This document shows, in pieces, positions 49,939 to 61,720 of a DNA stretch of 64,000 nucleotides. The notes beneath the pieces were generated by a model. That model made no database searches. It worked only from the letters and a program-made list of their open reading frames with translations, and was not told the origin of the DNA. The position numbers were made by a program, and so were the translations under genes. Source of the DNA: Atractiella rhizophila. Lineage: Eukaryota. The first letter of the stretch is position 1. Every line of letters starts with the position of its first letter. The DNA lies in the NCBI GenBank assembly GCA_021432655.1, contig MU271373.1, forward strand, positions 1 through 64,000, written 5' to 3'.

Positions 49939-50986
49939 TTAAGCCTCTATTCCCAACATGCGTAGTATAACCTTCCCAATAACGACTCCGTCATGCGCAT
50001 CAGCCGCATCCTTCATCGCCTTCTCCGCCCTTTCTTCTGAAAAGATGCCTTGCTCTCTTCTCACACCAACAATCTTCTGCACGATGTCACATGTAAACTC
50101 GGGATGACCCTGGACCGTGAATATCCGGACTGATTGGAGGTCGAAGGAAGTGGGCGAGGTGGGAGAGGAGAGCAGGATCATGCCTTGATTCGGCGCCACG
50201 GGAGAATGTGCAAGCAGTTGGAATCCTGCTGGTGCTTTGGGAACGTGGTCGCGATGCATTTGCTGGATCCTCTACAGGATGAAATAGTACCCATTAGTAT
50301 CGTCTCCATTCACAACACAGCTGCAGAGAAATTCAAGGCTCCTTTCAAACCAAAAGAAACAGACTGGCAGTGTACTCTGCGCTCATGTAAAGAATGTTAC
50401 TGATTGTGGTTGCCCGAGATTTGGTCGATAATTTATGTTTTGCAAATAAAGGACCTCTGCATAATTCTTGTCTTAGAATAAACTTGCTCACCAAGCAACC
50501 CTTATTTTCCTTGAAAACAGCCTTGCCCCAATCTGTCATCTCACAATCCACTACTCCGACCTCCCAAGCTCCATTAGATTCACAAACACTGGAATCTTCC
50601 CTTTTTCCAAAAGCCATAGCGACTATCTGATGCCCAAAACAGATCCCAATGATTTTCTTTCCCTTTTCATGCACCTCTTTCACGTAATCTACCAACTTGA
50701 GGATCCACGGGGCGGTATCGTAAGCCGTATGCTTAGATCCCGTCAGAAGGACTCCATCCGCTTCATCTAGCTCTGCAGGAGGAGGATAAGAGCCAGCAAC
50801 GACATCGTAGGACTTCACGTTCAGCGAGGCGGTTGATTCAGCTGGAATCGAAGCGACGAAGAGCGCGCAAAAGATGTCATGATAAGTGCCGTATTGGGCA
50901 AGAACTGGAGGAGCTGGAGTGTCACATAGAAGGACTATGAGGCTCTTGCTCCCGCTTGAAGCATTCGAACCGATGGTTGTTTCCAT
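49939..50986 (-). CDS. Class I glutamine amidotransferase-like protein; 2 exons
   Basis: LLTGSKH, IIGICFGHQI (nucleophile Cys), GAWEVG, QMHRDHV and VQGHPEF (His-x-Glu). Intron 50491-50272. Confidence 0.88.
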
Positions 50987-51183
50987 TTCGCATTTCGCTG
51001 CTTCATTTTGACATTTTGATTTGCGCGCATCTAACAATCATGAAAAGGTCCGAACCCAGTCCTGCTTACAACTCTGACAGGACTCAAGGACTCCAACGGA
51101 CAGTTGTGTGCTTTCTTGAACCAGTCTGAAAAACCTGTAAATATATCAGCGCTCACGGCAAAGAAACTGCTTTGGAAATGGTT

Positions 51184-54100
51184 ATGGAGCACATCTTCCA
51201 CGAAGACGAATCATTTTCCAGTCATCAGATTGTGAGCTTGGGGGAGAACTTGAGACGGGTCAGTGGCGAAGAGGTGCACAAGCGGAAGAGGAATAGGTAT
51301 ACTAAAGTTACCCCGTTAGAGTATTGTGGATTGAAACTGACGTGTATTCTCTCTGCGGTTAGACAGGTTCTTAGCTGGCAAGTCGCTTCCTGAGCTGTTT
51401 GGAGCCACTGAAACACCACTTACCCTATTTGTTCTGCAATAGTACTGTGCGTTTTATCATTATCAGAGTTCCCATCGAATTGAACAGATCAATAACAGGA
51501 ATGCAAGCGGTTCGTACTCATTTCATCGCTGTTCGACATTACGTCCTCACAATCTTCTTACTTTTCAGACGGAAAATAAAAGTGCGCTCATCGTTTACTT
51601 TGGTATATATGGATGGCTGATTTGTTTTCACTCCAGTGCGACAGTGAGTCACTCATCGGAACGCTGCTCATCGTGGTAAATAAAATCCTTCGTTTTAGGG
51701 AAATTGCCCTGTACATCGTGCATTAGTTCGTCACCTCTTTTTCTCCATTGGCTTCCTGTTGAGATGATTGCTCTTAGAGAGAGGAGAAAATGAAAAATGT
51801 CATTGGGAGGTTTGTTCCTCTGTTCGTTCTCCCTCGATCGTATCTAACGAGACCCTAGGAGACGAAGAAGGTATGATTGCACACTTCAGTTCGAGGTTTG
51901 ATTGCTACTCATGCGACTTCCACAGGAAGTAGCACCGCAGCCTGTAAGACTTTCTAGATCTGAAATTGAAGTGCCACTGATCCAACATGGGTAGTTCGCG
52001 CTGGTATCTGATGGTTCGCTTTCTGCCCAACAATGTAAGTACACATTGCTGAGCTCTCTTGCGCAGTTCAAGCGCTGCAAGCGCGCCTTATTCGTCTCGA
52101 ATCATTGTTTCATCAGCGGAATCAGATCGAAAACCCACCTTGTATCCCCCAAACATCGGGCTCCGCGAGTTCTAGCTCTCATTCCTCTTCCAACGAGCCT
52201 CAGTCACCGATACAGCCGGCTACTCTGAACATACCGGAACTCAAAGGCTTCCTCGAGTCGCCACAGATTGAGTCTCTTCTGCGTGCGGTGTCGATGACCA
52301 ATGTGACACAGAAGGCAAAACGAGAACAGTCTGATACAGCACAGGCGCTGGAGGACATGAGTAAGTCTGTTGATTGAATGACAAGTCTACCTTTCATCTT
52401 GGGGGGTTAGTTATTAGCCTCAGTGAAGCTGATGCATCACCAGCCTCACGGCCGGTGGCCCAAATATCAAATGGGTCTTTAGCAATTCTCAAGGACCCAG
52501 CTACAACGACGGCGATGGGAAGGAAAGGTCGTATGCAAAGCATTCTTGAACACATGGGCTCAGATAAAGAAGCCAAGCATCGGGCCTACATTTGGTCTGT
52601 GTTCCCCAAGGACAAGATGACGATGGACAAGATCGTGGGACTGTATTTCGATCGATTTGCGTGGTGTCACCATCTCATCCATGTTCCTTCTTGGAAGTCA
52701 TGGTACCGGGAGTATTGGATTTTGGTGGAAGGTGGATTCAGGGATGAAGTGCGTAGCTTGCCCTGTTTATGTCATCCCAGCCTTGACGTCCTGTGCAAGA
52801 TCGAACCGTGCTTTCTTGCAGTTTTAGCAGGTGTGCTCGCGCTTGGTATGGTCTGTTACGTGCCTGGAAAGGACGAAGCATTACCTGGAGTATTGGAGGA
52901 GGAAGATTATGCCTACCTCCCCATTGTGTTCAACACTGCAAGCATGATGGCCCTCGAAATCGCAAAATGGGAAGAAGCTCCTAGTTATTTTGCTTGTCTT
53001 GCTTTTGCGCTTTTCATTCCATTGTAAGCAAGGTCGTTCTACCATGTTGCCGTATTCCCTGACATGATCTTGTGCGCTTAGCGATAAGTCAATGGGAACA
53101 GGTATTTCTGCTGTAGGAGGTGGTACGCAGAAATATCGCATTGCTTCAGGTGTACGGCTCTGCCAACAGCTCGAATATAATCGACTTGCGCAAGACGTCG
53201 CTGCCATGCCACCGGATTCGAAGGGGCTACCTCCTGGGAGCAACACTCAGAAACGGGAGATGTGCCTTTGGTTGTTCCATAACTTCCAATGGGTAAGTGC
53301 GTAACTGAAGGAGTATTAGTTGGGGTTGATGTGGATGGTGTTTAGTATGAATCAATCTGCTCGCATCCTCGCATCCACAGCATGCGTCTTGAACTGGGAA
53401 TCGAACGTAAAATGATCCTCCCGCTCAACTGCAACGATAAAGAACTCTGTTCTACGACAACCATCCGTCGTTGCCACGACGACAGCGTCTATACAGAGCT
53501 CACCTTTGACCTTATGCGAATTCGTCTCGGCGTAATATCTGTGAAAATTTTCAGATACATCGCGTCAGGTTCGATGTCTTACAACCATGGTGCGCTTTTT
53601 CACCAACACTGAAGCCCAAAGGTTAAAAGAAATGACGAAATAATGCAGTGATGGAAATTGATGGCGATTATCGTGCCATTCTTCAAGCCAACCCAAAAGA
53701 GCTACATGAGGATTATGTTCCGCCGCCAGGGCATAAAGAGGATGCGATCTCCCAGGGACAAAGGTTGTTAAGTTCTGAACTGATTCACAATCGATTAGTG
53801 CGATTGTAAGTGATAACCTCTGTGGGCAGAATATCCTTAGGTGACTTCTCTGAGAGACATCGACCCTTTCTTATTCGAGGATACTCGGATACTCGCTTCA
53901 AATCATCAACAGTAGCCTGTCTGACCTCTGCTCGACGAGCCTTATCACTCCAGAGGCTTGCTTATTCTTTCCTGCAACATTGCGGATGGCTAATAGTGGG
54001 ATAGGAAAATGAGGGACTCGGGCAGCGCCTTCGTTTCTTGGGAGTTCTTCGTGGTTCACCTTTTGGCCTCAAGTCTTGTCATCATCAGTAAGTCATTGCC

Positions 54101-54725
54101 ATTATCTTTTGATTTTATCCTGGTATGTTTATGCTTTCATTGCCTTTGACCAGTCGACTTGTTCCGTGCTGTTGAAGCAACTCACCTCAATGGACCCTGC
54201 ACTCCTCTTCGACGATTGGAACTAGAACAACAACGCAGGGAAGTGCAGGATTGCGTCAACGATTTCAGAGAGTCGCTCAAGACTTGCAAACTCTTCACGC
54301 GGTGTCTCGCTAGATCGTGTCTAGCCATTTTAGAGGAACTTTTGGCTGCTGAGGAGGAATACCGGGCGCAGGCAAAAACGAATCCTGCTCTCCTTCCGTT
54401 CGAGGAAACACTAAGGGTCGTGATAAAGAAGCTGAGCAGCAAACTTAGAGGGAGGGCGATGGACGACGAAGAAGCAGATACGACTGAGCCTATGCAGATG
54501 GAGGAAGATGAAGATCCAGGGATGAAACTTCTTAGAGAGCTGGGGCTGCTGGAGCCAAATTGGTCATCTCAACAGGACTCTTCCTCTGTGACGCAGGATT
54601 TCACTACAAATCTTGGGCAATCAGGCATGGTCGACACCGAGACCCTATTATCTTCGGCACAAGGAACCGATTGGCTTCTGCAGTATTTTGGAAACCAAGT
54701 CAATTCAGAGATCCCTCAGTTCTGA
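51184..54725 (+). CDS. Zn(II)2Cys6 fungal transcription factor with middle-homology domain, copy A; many exons
   Basis: Micro-exon-spliced KRKRNRQVLSCTECKRRKIKCDRKLPCTSCIKRGENEKCHWE (C-x2-C-x6-C-x5-C-x2-C-x8-C). Later YFDRFAWCHHLIHVPSW, PLNCND and HRPFLIRG are typical of fungal-specific TF domains. Confidence 0.88.
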
Positions 54726-54856: not shown

Positions 54857-57825
54857 CTACGTCGGGAACGTAGCACTCATGTTACCACTCTTGGGTTTAA
54901 CGTCCACTTTCAACGGACGGCCCATCTGTAGATCGTCCGGAAAGTCCATCTTACGCCTCGCCTTCATCTTCAAGTCGTCTGGGAAGTCCAACTTGTCTCT
55001 CGTCTTCTTGTCCCTGCGGGCATGGGCTACCTGCTCGTCAGGCATGATATCTAATAACGAGTTGATCGTCGAATAATCTACGCTTTCCATTGGAACATTC
55101 GAAGCGCGAGCCTTCTTTTTCTTCTTCCCCCCTTTCGCGCTTTCTGTAATAGGAGTGGAAGCGCCAGATTCTTCATCAGTCAGACGCTTCCGCTTCTTCT
55201 TCTTGTCGTTGGGCAAAGCAGAGACAATCAGAATATCGTCCTCCTCAGAGTCCTCCTTCTGTCCTGTTGTTGGTCTATTGGCGACCGCAACACCCTCAAT
55301 GGTTGTGCGTTGATCTCTGGGAACAAAAACATGATCAGGAACAATAGTTTCCACCTCGATCCTTTCCTCCATGCATACTGCATTTGATGAGGAGCGCTGC
55401 TGGAGCGTGTCGGCAATAGCTGGCGCTACAGGAGACTCATTCCGCATTTCAGTCTGGATCCTGAGGTGTACTGAGCGAACTGATTCGATCTTTTGACCGT
55501 CAGCAGGTGGAGAAAGCTGGGAAGGGAAAAGAGAGCTGTGAGGTTGATGGAGGTATCTGATAGGGTTTGGCGCAAATAATAACGAGGACGGCGCTTGGAC
55601 ATTCGACAAGTGCGGTGACGCAAGCGTTTTCTTCCCCCAGATTCCAGGAATAGGCCTGACTTTTGGAAGGTCTATCTCGACGGCTGTAGCAGCAATGTTG
55701 GAGCTGTCAGCACCATCCGTAGCTCCGACACTGCCCATGACGACGTCTTCCTGAACTGCTTCCTGGGTAGCAGAAGAAGCTGCTTTCGAGCGCAACTTCG
55801 CTTCCGCCCGGTCGGCCGCATGCTTGATGATCTTCACAACTCCAAGAGCATGCTTTGCTAAGATCAAAGATGCCGGATGACAAATCTGCAGAACGTCTGA
55901 AACTGTGGATGGCCGTACAGTAGCGAGAGTGATGATTTTTTGAGGTATGAGGATGTATCTTCACGCCTATGAGTAAAGCAGCAAAGTGTCACAGAGAGAA
56001 GAGGAGACAAACCGATGACTCTCATCCTCACTGCGTGCCATTCGATCTCTCCAATCGGCTAGATCCTGTCCAACTTCGTAGGCAACTCCTGAACCATCAT
56101 TTGCCCACTCCCCATCTGCACCAGTCATCCCAGTTTTCTTCAATATCATTCCCCAACAATGTGGGCCGGCTCCTTGCTCGTCTTTCTTGAACCTTCGATA
56201 CGAAGTCTCCCTGGAACGTGTGAGGATGTAGGACATGAGAGCAGGTTGCGTTGGCTCCACACCTTCTGGAGGTACATAGGAGGAGTCGGTGTGGAATAAC
56301 GAGTAGCGAAGACGGTCATAGATGTAGAGGAGGAAGTGTGTATCGGATCGAGCGTAATGGAGCATTTCTGACGGGAGAGGTCGAATACGCCAGTCTGCAA
56401 GTTGGTAGCGTTTGTCCGCATCGAAATTACAGAAAGTCTTCAATAGCACGGCTAAACTGTTCTTTGGATAACCTAAAGGTGTCAATGGGTACAAATTTCG
56501 ATATCGGGCAGCTGTGACTTACCCAAAGTCTTTGAAGCTTCGAAGGTGTCGAAGAGAGAAACGATGTAAATGCCAAAATCCCTTTGTAACCACGTAACAT
56601 CCATGAAAGCGCCATGTAAGACTTTGATCCAAGCCGGATCCTCAAAGAACTCCTTCAGCTTGTGGATCAACGGCCTCAGTTCTGGCTTAAGGAGATCGAC
56701 AACCCAATCCTTCTGCCTTGTACTCAGCTGCATGACACATAGGATTCCAGCGTAAGAGTGGTAATCGTGATGTTCGAGATCGACCGCAAGCTCCTTCTCC
56801 TTGCTCTCCCGAATCTCCTCTACCATTGCCTCGAAACTTTCCACTGTATCCACGTAAGCCATCGCGACAGTGTCAAAGCTCCCCTCCCATGTCCGGTCCA
56901 GATCCACGTGTGGCTGCTCGAAGAGGATAGGGTGGGAAGTTGGTGTGGGAATGTCCACAGAAGATGGTGGTGGATACAATGGAACGAACTCTGAAGGGGA
57001 GTTGTCAAATTGAAGATAAGAGGGAAAGAGCAGCTGGGGTTTCGGAGTGTTTGGAGGGTTGTAAAGGTGCTTGGGAAGCTTCCCTTGTGATGGTGTGGGA
57101 ATGAGCGAGGGGGTAAGGGGGACTGCTGAAGTCGATGCGGTGGGCTGCGTCTCACCCATGCGATGCCGATCTATGAGATTGTCCTATTCATACAAGCGTC
57201 AGAATCCGGCTAATTGCACATGGAAACCTCTAATCAAAATTGAAACATCTCTCTGAGGAAAGTGAGCATCAACTTTACATCCAAATCCTTCAAGCTTACA
57301 AAGCACTTCAACAGGTTACATTAAAAGTTCCATAAGAGAGATTCCTTCAACCAATCTAGACACTTAAAGTAATCAATGTAGCATGCCCCCAACGGATATA
57401 CGGGGTACATGGCGACATTCGCTTTGGTATTATCTGTCAGGCTGTCTCTCCGCAATCTGGATCGCTGACTGCTCACTTCAGTAGAACAATGATGGCTTGT
57501 AAAGTTTCATGCTCCAGAGGAGTGATAATGGAAGTGCAAACGACAAAGTAGAAGATGATAGCGAACATACCGCATTTTCCAAATATTTCTCCTCGACACC
57601 TTCCCACACCTTCTTCCACTCCGTTTCCTCCTCCCACTCTCCCGTTCCCCTAATTTTAGGCCCTCCAACCCGCTCTACAACCTTTTCCAGTCGTTCAGTC
57701 AGTCCATCCAATTTTGCTCCAAGCGTGCGATCCATGGAACGCGCAAACGAGATTTCGCCACGGTCAGGCAGAGAATGAGATGCCCGAGTAAGTGCAAGCA
57801 AGTGTGGAAGAAGTGGGGATGCCAT
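54857..57825 (-). CDS. RRP6: Nuclear exosome 3'-5' exonuclease Rrp6/EXOSC10; multi-exon
   Basis: PMC2NT-like N-terminus, ELAVDLEHHDYHSYAG, LHGAFMDVTWLQRDFG, ADKRYQLADWRIRPL, YARSDTHFLLYIYD, HRDC-like WRDRMARSEDES, and C-terminal KSGNMSATF. First intron is 57570-57184. Confidence 0.93.
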
Positions 57826-58245
57826 GTTAAGTCGAGGAGATGGCGTGAGGAGACACCTTCCCAGCAGGTTCATCGAAAATTTGCCTTGTTTGTTTGTTGA
57901 GAAGGTACATGCCAACGTACACGAACGACGCAAGACTCAGTTGGATGTAAGCTGCTATACATGTTATTTGGGACGTTATTAATGAAAGGTGTGCATTCTA
58001 TTCGCAGTGTGAATACTGCCAGCCTAATTTATCCCCAGAGTTCTTTGTCTCCCTGGATTTCAACTAGTAGCATTTTAGATCGTCTGTAGGGAGATCGTCT
58101 GAAATTACATCGTCCTACCTTGTCATCGTGGAATGTTATGGGATAAGGATTGCAAACTTGAATTAAGAGACTACTAGAAGTGTGCAACAGATAGTGGTAA
58201 CCAATCTGGCAATTGGGGTCAGAGCTGAGGAATGTGCGGACTAGG

Positions 58246-61200
58246 CTAGTTTCTAAAATACTGCAAAAGCCAATCAGTCCCTTGTGCCGAAGGTAAAAAA
58301 CTCTGAGCGTCCGTCATGTCCGGTTCTCCAAGGCTGCTGTTGAGGTCCTGCACACCAGAAGAAGAGTTCTGCTGATGCGACCAAAGGGGTTCTAAAAGCC
58401 CCAGCTCTCGCAGAAGTTTCATCCCCGGATCTTCATCTTCCTCCATCTGCATAGGCTCAGTCGCATCTGCTTCTTCATCGTCCACTCTGCCTCTACGTTT
58501 GCTGCCCAGCTTCTTTATTACAATTCCTAGAGTTTCCTCGAACGGAACGAGAGTAGGATTTGTTTTTGCCTGTGCTCGGTATGCTTCCTCCGCAGCTAAT
58601 AGCTCCTCTAAAATGACTAGGCATGATCTAGCAAGACAGCGAGTGAAGAGCTTGCAAGTCTTGAGTGACTCTCTAAAATCGTTGAAACAGTCTTGCACTT
58701 CCCTGCGTTGTTGTTCTAGGTCTAATCGTTGAAGAGGAGGAGTGCACGGTTCATTGCGGTGAGTTGCCTCAACAGCGTGAAACAAGTCGACTATGCAATT
58801 AAAACATTAACCACAAGCCACGACAAACCAAAAGATGAAAGAGAATGACGGACTAATGATGACTAGACTTGAGACCAAAAGATGAACCACAAAGAACTCC
58901 CACGAAACGAAAGCGCTGCCGGAGTCTCGCATTTTCCTATCCTGCTATCAGCCATCTGCAACGTTGCAGGAAATAATAAACGAGCCTCTGCAGTGATAAG
59001 GCTCGTCGAGCAGAGTTCAGACAGGCCACTGTTGACGATTTGAAACGTGTGTCTGAGTATCCTCGAATAAGAAATGGTCGGTGCCTATCAGCAAAATCAC
59101 CAAGGATGGCCAGACCATGAAATCTTCGCTCACAGTCGTACTAATCGATTGTGAACCAGTTCACAACTTAATAATCTATGTTCCCGAACCATTGGTTCTT
59201 CTGTGCACCCTTGAGGGAGAACATAATCTTCCTGCATCTCCCTCGGATGGGATTGAAGAATGACACGGTAGTCGCGATCAATCTCCATCACTGAATTATT
59301 TTAGTCAACATACTGTGTCACTGGAGACAAGGGGCGTACCTTGATTATAAGACATTGAACCTGATTCGATATATCTGAAAATTTTCGCCGATACTTCCCC
59401 CAGACGAATTCGGGTAAGATCAAAGCTAAGCTCTGTATAGACGTTATCGGCATAACAAGGACGGGTGGTCGTCGTGAAAGGAAGCTCGGCATCGTTGCAG
59501 TTGAGCGGGACGATAATTTTGCGTTCCAACCCCAGTTCATGGCGCATGTTGTTTATGGGACGATGCGAACAGACATCTTCATACTACCCCACAATCATCA
59601 TCAGCCAAGTAACAGACTCGAACAACTCTACTGACCCACTGGAAGTTATAGAACAGCCAAAGGCACATCTCCCGCTTCTGTGTGTTGCTTCCCGGCGGTA
59701 GCCCTTTCGAATCAGCTGGCATGGCAGAGACATCTTGTGCGAGCCGATGATATTCGAGTTGTTTGCAAAGCCGTATGCCAGCAGCAATGCGGTGTTTCTG
59801 GGTACCCTCTCTAATCACAGGAACACCTGTACGCATTGACCTGTCACTGTGTAGAAAAGACTGATATCAGCGATGTTTCGATGTGTTAGAACGAGATTGC
59901 TCACAAAGGAATGAGAAGGGCAAAAGCGAGACAAGCAAAATAACTAGGAGTTTCTTCCCATCTCGCGATTTCGAGAGCCATTGTGCTTGCTGCATGGTAT
60001 ACGATAGGGAGGGAGGCATAATCCTCCTCCTCCAATACTCCAGGTAACGCTTCATCCTTTCCAGGCAAGTAACAGACCATACCCAGCGCGAGAACACCTG
60101 CTAGGACAGCAAGGAAGCAAGGTTCGATCTTCCACAACGCCGTCAAGGATGGCAAATGAGAGGAACAGAGCCAAACACACACTTCATCCCTTAATCCACC
60201 TTCTACCAATACCCAATACTCATGGTACCATGACTGCCACGAAGGAACGTGGATGATATGGTGACATAAAAATCGTTCAAAATACAGTCCCACGATCTTA
60301 TCCATCGTCGTTCTGTCCTTGGGAAACACGGACCATATATTAGCCCGATTCTTCGCTTCTTTGTCTAGGTCCATCCGCTCAAGAATGTTTTGCATACGAC
60401 CTTTCCTTGCTCCGCCTATCGTTGTAGAGGGATCCCTCAGAATTGCGAACGACATATTGGACTCTTTCAGGGTCGGTTGTGAGGACAGTGATTCATCAGC
60501 TTCACTTAGGCTTATTGCTGTTTCGCCGAGATGAATTTTGTCACATCAGTAATCAACATGCGTACCCATGTCCTCCAGCGTTTGTATGGTATCAGATTGT
60601 TCTCCTTTCACCTTCTCTGCCCCTCCGGTCATCGATACCGCACGAAGAAGTGACTCCAGCTGCGGCGACTCGAGCAAACCTTTCGGCTCTGACACATTTC
60701 GAACAGACCCTTGCTTCGGCGACGAAAGCTCGTTGGAGGATATCGATTCTGACTGAATATGTGACGGGATTCGGCGCAAATTTTGTTGTTGAAGCAATGC
60801 TTCAAGACGAAGAAGGCGCGTTTGCAGAGCGTGAACTGCGCAAACGTCTTTCAGCTTGTCACATTGTACTTGTCAGATAGAGGCGAACGATCGGATACGA
60901 GAGCGAACTATGTCGTTTGGGTCAGTGGAATTCAGTTCCAGATGGAGAGAATCTCACAGGCTGAGGCGCCACTTCCTGCGGAGTTTGCATGAGCCACAAT
61001 CAAATCTCGAACTGCTGTGGGGTGCCATACCTTCTTCGTTTCCTAAGGACTTGATACATGAGCGCGCAGGGACAAAGGAGCGGAGTAACAAACCTCCCAA
61101 TGGCATTTTTCATTTTCTCCTCTCTCTAAAGATCTCATGAAAGGGAGGCAGTGAATCGAGAAGAAAAAGGACGGACTAATGCAAGCGGTACAGGGCAGTT

Positions 61201-61720
61201 TGCCTGGTAATGAGAACATTTTAGCACTATCGGCAGCGTCAAAATTTGCAGACTCACGGTCGCACTGGATCGAAAGAATGAGCTATGAATGCAAGAAAAT
61301 GTGATAGATGAGCTTACCTTTATTTTCCGTCTGAGAAGTAAGAAGGCATAAGCATATTCTACCAAAAAGCAGAGTGGAAATACGAACCGCTTGCATTCCT
61401 ATCATTCACAATCAGTCACCATGTTCAACCTCTATGACCATTCTAATAATAATAAACTCACAGTGCTATTGCTCAATAGCAAATTGTCAGCAATGCCGCA
61501 CTGCAAGCAGCACGGGAAACGACTTGCCAGCTAAGAACCTGTCTAAAGAGATACCAGAAAATTCGAGATTTCGGTCTGACAATACTATTACAAAGTAATT
61601 TACCTACCTATTCCTCTTCCGCTTTTGAGTTTCCTCGCTGGTTACATGTATCAAGTTCTCTTCTGAGCCCTGCACGAGATGATTGGAAAATGATTCATCG
61701 TCCTGAAAGATGTGCTCCAT
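58246..61720 (-). CDS. Zn(II)2Cys6 fungal transcription factor, copy B (inverted paralogue of copy A)
   Basis: Same exon sizes as copy A. Spliced CTECKRRKIKCDRKLPCTACIKRGENEKCHWE; collinear segments such as IEPCFLAVLAGVLALGMVCY and SLKTCKLFTRCLARSCL are identical to copy A. Confidence 0.88.

Follow-up and report, generated by a model that had tools for sequence, protein, structure and literature searches.

Two paralogous genes of the fungus Atractiella rhizophila lie tail to tail in the window analyzed here, a stretch of 64,000 nucleotides (nt) corresponding to positions 1 to 64,000 of contig MU271373.1 (assembly GCA_021432655.1), with copy A on the forward (+) strand, copy B converging on it from the reverse (-) strand, and exons that are 74 to 86% alike. 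We consider it highly probable that both genes specify Zn2Cys6 transcription factors whose zinc cluster is tiled by ten consecutive micro-exons, that these include a genuine exon of 4 nt preceded by a GC-AG intron, and that the public gene models are in error at that place.

The public counterparts of the two genes, reached by translated read-through of one larger exon, are P0001 (832 amino acids; copy A) and P0002 (812 amino acids; copy B), both deposited as "hypothetical protein" of Atractiella rhizophila from one 79,324-base contig. Joining 19 exons of the window reproduces P0001 without a single mismatch, so the window carries the sequence of this genome. The public model of copy A starts at the in-frame ATG at 51178, two codons 5' of position 51184, from which a preliminary description of this DNA had counted exon 1. 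RNA evidence was taken from the assembled contigs of four sequencing runs (X1 to X4), and such contigs give no isoform ratios. X4 contigs carry GT..AG joints along both paralogs and along the gene between them, and because these joints run all along both genes, we treat X4 as RNA derived.

Each copy has a 113-nt exon 1 followed by ten consecutive micro-exons of 15, 4, 11, 13, 7, 27, 32, 12, 18, and 19 nt, which encode a basic stretch, the six-cysteine cluster, and a linker and are separated by introns of 49 to 66 nt. The intron density amounts to ten introns per 158 coding bases, versus eight in the remaining 2,222. Under a strict definition (≤15 nt), the micro-exons comprise those of 15, 4, 11, 13, 7, and 12 nt, and a wide definition (≤51 nt) also takes in those of 27, 32, 18, and 19 nt. 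The preliminary description had assembled the cluster from seven micro-exons, and all of its coordinates, exon sizes, and splice dinucleotides, together with the six-cysteine peptide, hold in both copies; the run extends beyond it by three further micro-exons (12, 18, and 19 nt) to ten. The features of the two genes are as follows.

51184..51296, + strand: copy A exon 1, 113 nt; its end encodes a basic KRKRNR stretch; donor GTATAC; X2 and X3 contigs continue into exon 2.
51363..51377, + strand: copy A exon 2, 15 nt; its final TG forms bases 1 and 2 of the Cys1 codon; read in the loose ends of X2 and X3.
51378..51442, + strand: copy A intron 2, GC-AG, 65 nt, donor GCAAGT; the public model uses instead the GT at 51382 (GTCGCT).
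51443..51446, + strand: copy A exon 3, 4 nt, TACT, base 3 of the Cys1 codon plus a Thr codon; in RNA contigs.
51499..51509, + strand: copy A exon 4, 11 nt, carrying Cys2; in RNA contigs.
51569..51581, + strand: copy A exon 5, 13 nt; identical in the public model.
51637..51643, + strand: copy A exon 6, 7 nt, carrying Cys3; identical in the public model.
51699..51725, + strand: copy A exon 7, 27 nt, carrying Cys4 and Cys5; X4 joints 51296->51699 and 51725->51778 (GT..AG).
51778..51809, + strand: copy A exon 8, 32 nt, carrying Cys6; X4 joints.
51859-51870, + strand: copy A exon 9, 12 nt, linker; X4 joint 51810->51924 with 9 letters between.
51926-51943, + strand: copy A exon 10, 18 nt, linker; from the P0001 rebuild.
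51995-52013, + strand: copy A exon 11, 19 nt, linker; X4 joint 52012->52067.
52067..54725, + strand: remainder of copy A, nine exons of 83 to 572 nt and eight introns of 49 to 66 nt, with the stop at 54725; X4 joints and the P0001 rebuild.
61608..61720, - strand: copy B exon 1, 113 nt.
61542-61528, - strand: copy B exon 2, 15 nt.
61527-61466, - strand: copy B intron 2, GC-AG, donor GCAAGT.
61465-61462, - strand: copy B exon 3, 4 nt, CACT; X1 loose end at 61461.
61398-61388, - strand: copy B exon 4, 11 nt.
61330-61318, - strand: copy B exon 5, 13 nt.
61264-61258, - strand: copy B exon 6, 7 nt.
61203-61177, - strand: copy B exon 7, 27 nt.
61125-61094, - strand: copy B exon 8, 32 nt.
61042-61031, - strand: copy B exon 9, 12 nt; X4 joint 60977->61093 with 9 letters between.
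60975-60958, - strand: copy B exon 10, 18 nt.
60907-60889, - strand: copy B exon 11, 19 nt.
58219..60835, - strand: remainder of copy B; lower end estimated from the inverted-repeat arms (74 to 86% complementary to copy A); P0002.

Exons 1 to 8 of copy A are bounded by AG before and GT after, with the exception of GCAAGT after exon 2, and the introns between them measure 52 to 66 nt in copy A and 51 to 65 nt in copy B. Splicing these exons in frame yields C-x2-C-x6-C-x5-C-x2-C-x8-C in both copies, which falls within the C-x2-C-x6-C-x5-12-C-x2-C-x6-8-C spacing of the Gal4-type cluster (PF00172). The codon of Cys1 is split by the GC-AG intron as TG/T in copy A and TG/C in copy B, and the change from TACT to CACT in an exon of the same size is synonymous, as had been stated before. 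The intron itself reads GCAAGT...AG in both copies; it has GC at +1/+2, consensus bases from +3 to +6, an AG acceptor, and a junction found in RNA, all of which characterize U2-type GC-AG introns, and the eight bases 3' of exon 2 are the same in both copies. When we looked between exons 2 and 4 for AG followed by four bases and then by GT or GC, the 121 nt of copy A held a single candidate, TACT, and copy B held three.

Seven of the exons following exon 1 (exons 2, 3, 4, 7, 8, 9, and 11) are present in RNA contigs. In X2 (51179-51296) and X3 (51101-51296), which come from two studies, the loose ends past 51296 read exon 2, TACT, and exon 4 (30 letters available of 35 and 47, respectively). This string is the one given by the model with the GC donor and TACT, including the junction of exon 2 with exon 3, and the string expected from the public model differs at four letters. 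On copy B, the loose end of X1 beyond 61461 has nine letters that match the start of exon 4, straight after CACT plus G, so that CACT and exon 4 are spliced together in this copy as well. The 4-nt exon is therefore real, appearing as TACT in X2 and X3 and as CACT spliced to exon 4 in X1, and the GC-AG intron that the preliminary description had placed before it is real as well and is kept in copy B. Further downstream, X4 contigs have intron 7 spliced out and exon 11 joined to exon 12; exon 9 (12 nt) is represented in both copies by nine letters left unplaced.

The X4 contigs also differ from the window at a few positions. At 52013, the final base of exon 11, a G in the window (Val) is replaced in the X4 contig by C (Leu), the base that copy B carries at the corresponding site; this is probably an allele or strain difference. 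Further differences between X4 and the window are located at 51239, 52118, and 52127.

Comparison of the two copies separates exons from introns. Micro-exons 2 to 11 are identical at 141 of 158 positions (89%), versus 335 of 548 (61%) in the intron interiors, for which shuffled introns give a baseline of 48 ± 4%; the earlier remark that the introns have diverged thus stands. Over 53 codons, the copies differ by 13 synonymous changes and 1 nonsynonymous change, which demonstrates, on the terms of a sequence comparison, purifying selection on the spliced frame. A search with P0001 returned 17 other proteins, 15 of them from other fungi (P0004 to P0018; Rhodotorula, Rhodosporidiobolus, and two ascomycetes), and in all 15 the six-cysteine pattern is complete, and L-S-C stands where our reading and the public models disagree. 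Against a profile made from these 15 homologs, the corrected peptides score 74.6 and 75.4 bits and the public peptides 69.6 and 70.4 bits, a difference of about 5 bits in favor of the corrected version. As for the origin of the introns, the candidate explanation that they are copies of one another (introner-like) was rejected, with a mean local score of 6.65 compared with 6.37 ± 1.4 for shuffles.

Fungal introns of about 50 to 65 nt are probably recognized as units, and exons between them can then be smaller than is usually possible. Each short intron in these genes would likewise be recognized as a unit (intron definition), so that exons as short as these could be tolerated. Only four bases separate the intron 2 acceptor from the intron 3 donor, so that presumably not both can be bound at a time, and introns 2 and 3 would have to be removed in order. 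The probable order is that the GT-AG intron 3 leaves first and the weaker GC-AG intron 2 leaves last. The fully spliced form would be the main product and would make a dimeric DNA-binding factor, presumably a zinc-dependent dimer that reads CGG-type half-sites, as is the behavior of this family.

One contig bears on this order. On copy B, X1 has bin depths of 0.72 and 0.05, which agree exactly with a single contig of 151 nt at depth 2 (61461-61667, - strand) and do not agree with two other layouts. As reconstructed, this contig comprises the last 60 nt of exon 1, exon 2, intron 2 in unspliced form, CACT, and the beginning of exon 4. If the reconstruction is right, it hints that the GC-AG intron is the slow one, a hint that comes from a single low-depth contig rebuilt from bin depths. 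By computation, retention of intron 2 leads to a stop at residue 48 (copy A) or 61 (copy B), and skipping of the 4-nt exon leads to a stop at residue 50.

These observations could also be read as regulation, in line with the suggestion of the preliminary description that the fidelity of splicing could gate the DNA-binding form. The array, above all the GC-AG intron beside the 4-nt exon, would then act as a regulated or kinetic checkpoint at which, under some conditions, a detained intron or a skipped exon produces a premature stop, so that the amount of DNA-binding factor is set at splicing. The X1 contig, which lacks introns 1 and 3 but still has the GC-AG intron, speaks for such gating, as do the early stops that follow from intron retention or exon skipping, and there are precedents in the Xlr2 micro-exon (PMC11121469) and in the detained introns of plant micro-exons (PMC8831610). 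However, that depth-2 contig is perhaps simply unfinished pre-mRNA, contigs provide no ratios, and strong purifying selection on the coding frame needs no regulation. We therefore regard gating as possible and unlikely.

A more specific version of the idea is somewhat less likely still, namely, that the 4-nt exon and the GC-AG intron, unchanged in both paralogs, form a splicing checkpoint in which the weak GC intron leaves only after its neighbor, lingers in a detained state, and so sets the amount of DNA-binding factor, and which may in addition yield an in-frame Cys1-to-Trp partner that poisons dimers. If this were true, the ten-micro-exon array would be a built-in posttranscriptional timer for a transcription factor and a substrate for studying exons below the footprint of the spliceosome.

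The public models P0001 and P0002 contain all of the other micro-exons. In both, exon 2 runs on for four bases up to the GT within GCAAGT and the 4-nt exon is skipped, and applying these two changes to the window reproduces the public reading in either copy. The consequence is that L-S-C-T-E-C in the corrected peptide becomes L-S-W-Q-E-C, with Cys-Thr replaced by Trp-Gln, Cys1 lost, and both length and frame unchanged. The models still pass the Pfam Zn_clus profile with 25.3 bits (P0001) and 24.8 bits (P0002) at a cutoff of 21, matching profile positions 4 to 35 of 39 only, and because they pass, the missing zinc ligand is invisible to a domain search. The public models are wrong at this one point, where a GT inside the GC intron was used as the donor and the 4-nt exon was skipped.

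For the public models to be right, the canonical GT donor at 51382 (61523 in copy B) would have to be used without a 4-nt exon, giving Trp-Gln and a cluster with five of the six cysteines. They are the deposited version, they need GT-AG introns only, they keep the frame, and they pass Zn_clus; moreover, no letters are available from the X4 contig for the interval from exon 1 to exon 7. In contrast, X2 and X3 read TACT and not GCAA, X1 joins CACT to exon 4 in copy B, cysteine occupies the place in question in every one of the 15 homologs, and whether the 4-nt exon starts with T or C, the codon still specifies that cysteine. The donors chosen in the public models (GTCGCT in copy A and GTCGTT in copy B) also lack the +5 G seen in 21 of the 22 donors of the two gene heads. 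A Gal4-type cluster without its first ligand is not expected to fold around two zinc ions. Taken together, we find it very improbable that the public models are correct at this point.

Equally improbable is that both patterns are used and that the form with the four-base extension makes a Cys1-to-Trp protein that dimerizes via its coiled coil, does not bind DNA, and serves as a dominant-negative partner: the two splice patterns are equal in length and frame in both paralogs, the eight bases after exon 2 are identical between copies, and a coiled-coil-like stretch does lie downstream of the cluster, but this form is in no RNA contig, its donor is poor, and the coincidence comes free, since a GT lies four bases into every GC donor of the consensus type (GCAAGT).

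Several points weigh against the reading that we prefer, in which ten micro-exons with a real 4-nt exon and GC-AG intron tile the cluster. The X2 and X3 contigs that contain the 4-nt exon have low depth (3.4 to 3.7), and, like X1 and X4, the runs behind them are not catalogued as RNA. Mismatches with the window (3 of 118 letters in X2 and 5 of 196 in X3) indicate that these contigs stem from a relative or another strain and not with certainty from the strain of the window. X4, the high-depth and near-identical run, gives no letters in the stretch between exon 1 and exon 7 and so does not show the 4-nt exon directly. The junctions between exons 4 and 5, 5 and 6, and 6 and 7 rest on frame, conservation, and the public model, and contigs cannot show the absence of an alternative in-frame form. 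All Pfam scores given here are those of public models, the corrected (joined) peptide having been scored with the homolog profile instead. A Fungal_trans domain (PF04082) was not found by Pfam in P0001 at an E value of ≤1. Finally, we infer the DNA binding, the dimerization, and the order of intron removal.

In P0002, likewise, Fungal_trans was not found at an E value of ≤0.01. The domain scores 12 bits in a third paralog, P0003, and 40.8 bits at residues 282 to 430 of the Rhodotorula ortholog P0004, a stretch that aligns with P0001; orthologs aligning over 46 to 83% of the length carry PF04082, as do those of Rhodotorula, with an identity of about 30%. The preliminary description had expected that automated annotation would leave these proteins with a middle homology region only. 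This expectation was wrong for P0001 and P0002, whose models hold the other micro-exons, pass Zn_clus, and have no Fungal_trans match at the limits just given. In databases, the two would look like cluster-only proteins, the opposite of what had been anticipated.

The third paralog brings the expectation closer to the mark. P0003, which is located outside the window on an 85,325-base contig, shares 51% identity with P0001. In its model, eight unrelated residues take the place of Cys1 and Cys2, equivalents of the 12-nt and 19-nt exons are lacking, and the Zn_clus match is 21.7 bits over profile positions 8 to 32, just above the cutoff of 21. P0003 probably has the same micro-exon array, mis-modeled more badly.

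With P0004 as the query of a structure search, the closest solved structure was the DNA-binding domain of Hap1 (1hwt; E value, 5.6e-9; residues 70 to 144, through the coiled coil), and P0001 aligns with P0004 through the Hap1-matching stretch. The best explanation, as judged from sequence, is that both genes would encode Hap1-like Zn2Cys6 (Gal4-type) transcription factors. Hap1 (Cyp1) of Saccharomyces cerevisiae (PDB 1hwt, 2hap, and 1qp9) resembles P0004 in its basic RKRNR lead-in, the L-S-C-T-x-C start of the cluster, the linker, and the coiled-coil dimerization element. The two are comparable over the first ~80 residues only, and the likeness says nothing about heme or oxygen sensing.

A metagenome scan with the three paralogs gave 70 loci, none with a nucleotide match to either gene or with a protein match starting beyond residue 100 of P0001; a close relative is not among them. 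Two fungal contigs of the metagenomes (L070:1060-1440 and L059:4140-4560) encode a very similar cluster (C-K-R-R-K-I-K-C-D-R) with two introns only. By eye, these introns are in phase 1 after S-C-T and in phase 2 in the Arg after C-D, and each is one base from an Atractiella intron (introns 3 and 6, respectively).

Between the paralogs lies a gene at 54857-57825 on the - strand that is Rrp6-like, with PMC2NT and 3'-5' exonuclease domains, the PMC2NT match covering profile positions 2 to 43 of 91 only. Its single intron of 387 nt (57184-57570) is far above the surrounding introns of 49 to 66 nt. We considered whether micro-exons are hidden in this 387-nt skip, as they are in the 402-nt skip in copy A, and rejected it, as the flanking exons join in frame and the pieces of the X4 contig leave no letters over (2598 + 305 + 16 = 2919). 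The 16 loose letters of that contig at 57874 match, by eye, the opposite strand about 60 bases away, which looks like a fold-back artifact of assembly. Upstream of copy A, the neighbor at 50345-51037 (- strand) has a class-I glutamine amidotransferase domain (28.9 bits); its frame ends about 150 bases from the start codon of copy A, so that both genes diverge from a short shared upstream region.

Overall, three public protein models of one transcription-factor family are corrected, two of which contain an error that domain searches do not reveal. The case exposes an annotation trap, in that GCAAGT holds a GT four bases in and a nearby 4-nt exon can be swapped for a 4-nt extension with the frame intact. 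It also provides, in duplicate, an extreme of intron density that is useful for studying how exons below the U1 footprint are spliced under intron definition.

The closest parallel, among the published parts of the literature accessible for comparison, is Xlr2 of Trichoderma virens, in which a 20-nt micro-exon carries two of the Zn2Cys6 cysteines and is included only without glucose; the JGI consensus model and most ortholog annotations do not include this micro-exon, which shows third-position substitutions across relatives (PMC11121469). As in the Atractiella genes, a micro-exon encodes a zinc-ligand cysteine of a Gal4-type domain and was overlooked by annotation. Xlr2, however, has one 20-nt exon between GT-AG introns in an ascomycete, with glucose-dependent inclusion, whereas the Atractiella genes have ten micro-exons down to 4 nt and a GC-AG intron in a basidiomycete, and the annotation error is a two-residue substitution and not the loss of a domain.

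In the CeGAL study, more than 90% of the fungal factors annotated without a DNA-binding domain were attributed to annotation errors, and in Rhizopus I1CF81 a mispredicted short exon of two residues leaves five of the six cysteines (PMC10141177). That work on 'MHD-only' proteins likewise deals with Zn2C6 domains that are missing or partial mostly because of annotation errors, but as a large-scale survey at the protein level, and in the parts consulted, supplements aside, we found no treatment of Atractiella, a 4-nt exon, a GC-AG donor, or ten-micro-exon arrays (PMC10141177). More generally, the literature on Atractiella rhizophila and on fungal and zinc-cluster micro-exons, supplements aside, yielded no description of this gene or of micro-exons in Atractiella; the single mention of micro-exons in PMC3990503 concerns an aligner setting.

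Micro-exons as such are well documented in basidiomycetes. Coprinopsis cinerea has 1,165 gene models with an exon of ≤15 nt and 89 with exons of 1 to 3 nt (PMC12230235), and P450 genes of Phanerochaete contain micro-exons of 2 to 10 residues (PMC1184071). These genes likewise combine short introns with tiny internal exons whose omission breaks the models (PMC12230235, PMC1184071). Their micro-exons are scattered and enriched in P450 genes, however, and the accessible parts of these papers describe no whole domain tiled by an unbroken run of ten. Plants have conserved clusters of exons of ≤15 nt that are widely wrong in annotations and whose flanking introns are more often detained (PMC8831610); these clusters differ from the Atractiella arrays in belonging to another kingdom, in having long introns, and, in the accessible part of that source, in having no link to zinc-cluster factors. 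As for the unusual donor, GT-AG makes up 98.7% of fungal introns and GC-AG is a rare class, with which the Atractiella intron shares the GC donor in an otherwise consensus context and the AG acceptor (PMC7072748). What sets it apart from generic GC-AG introns is that a 4-nt exon follows immediately and that annotation was misled by the GT within its donor. Both micro-exons in basidiomycetes and hidden Zn2Cys6 domains have thus been described before, and the Atractiella paralogs are an extreme example of them and not a new kind of biology.

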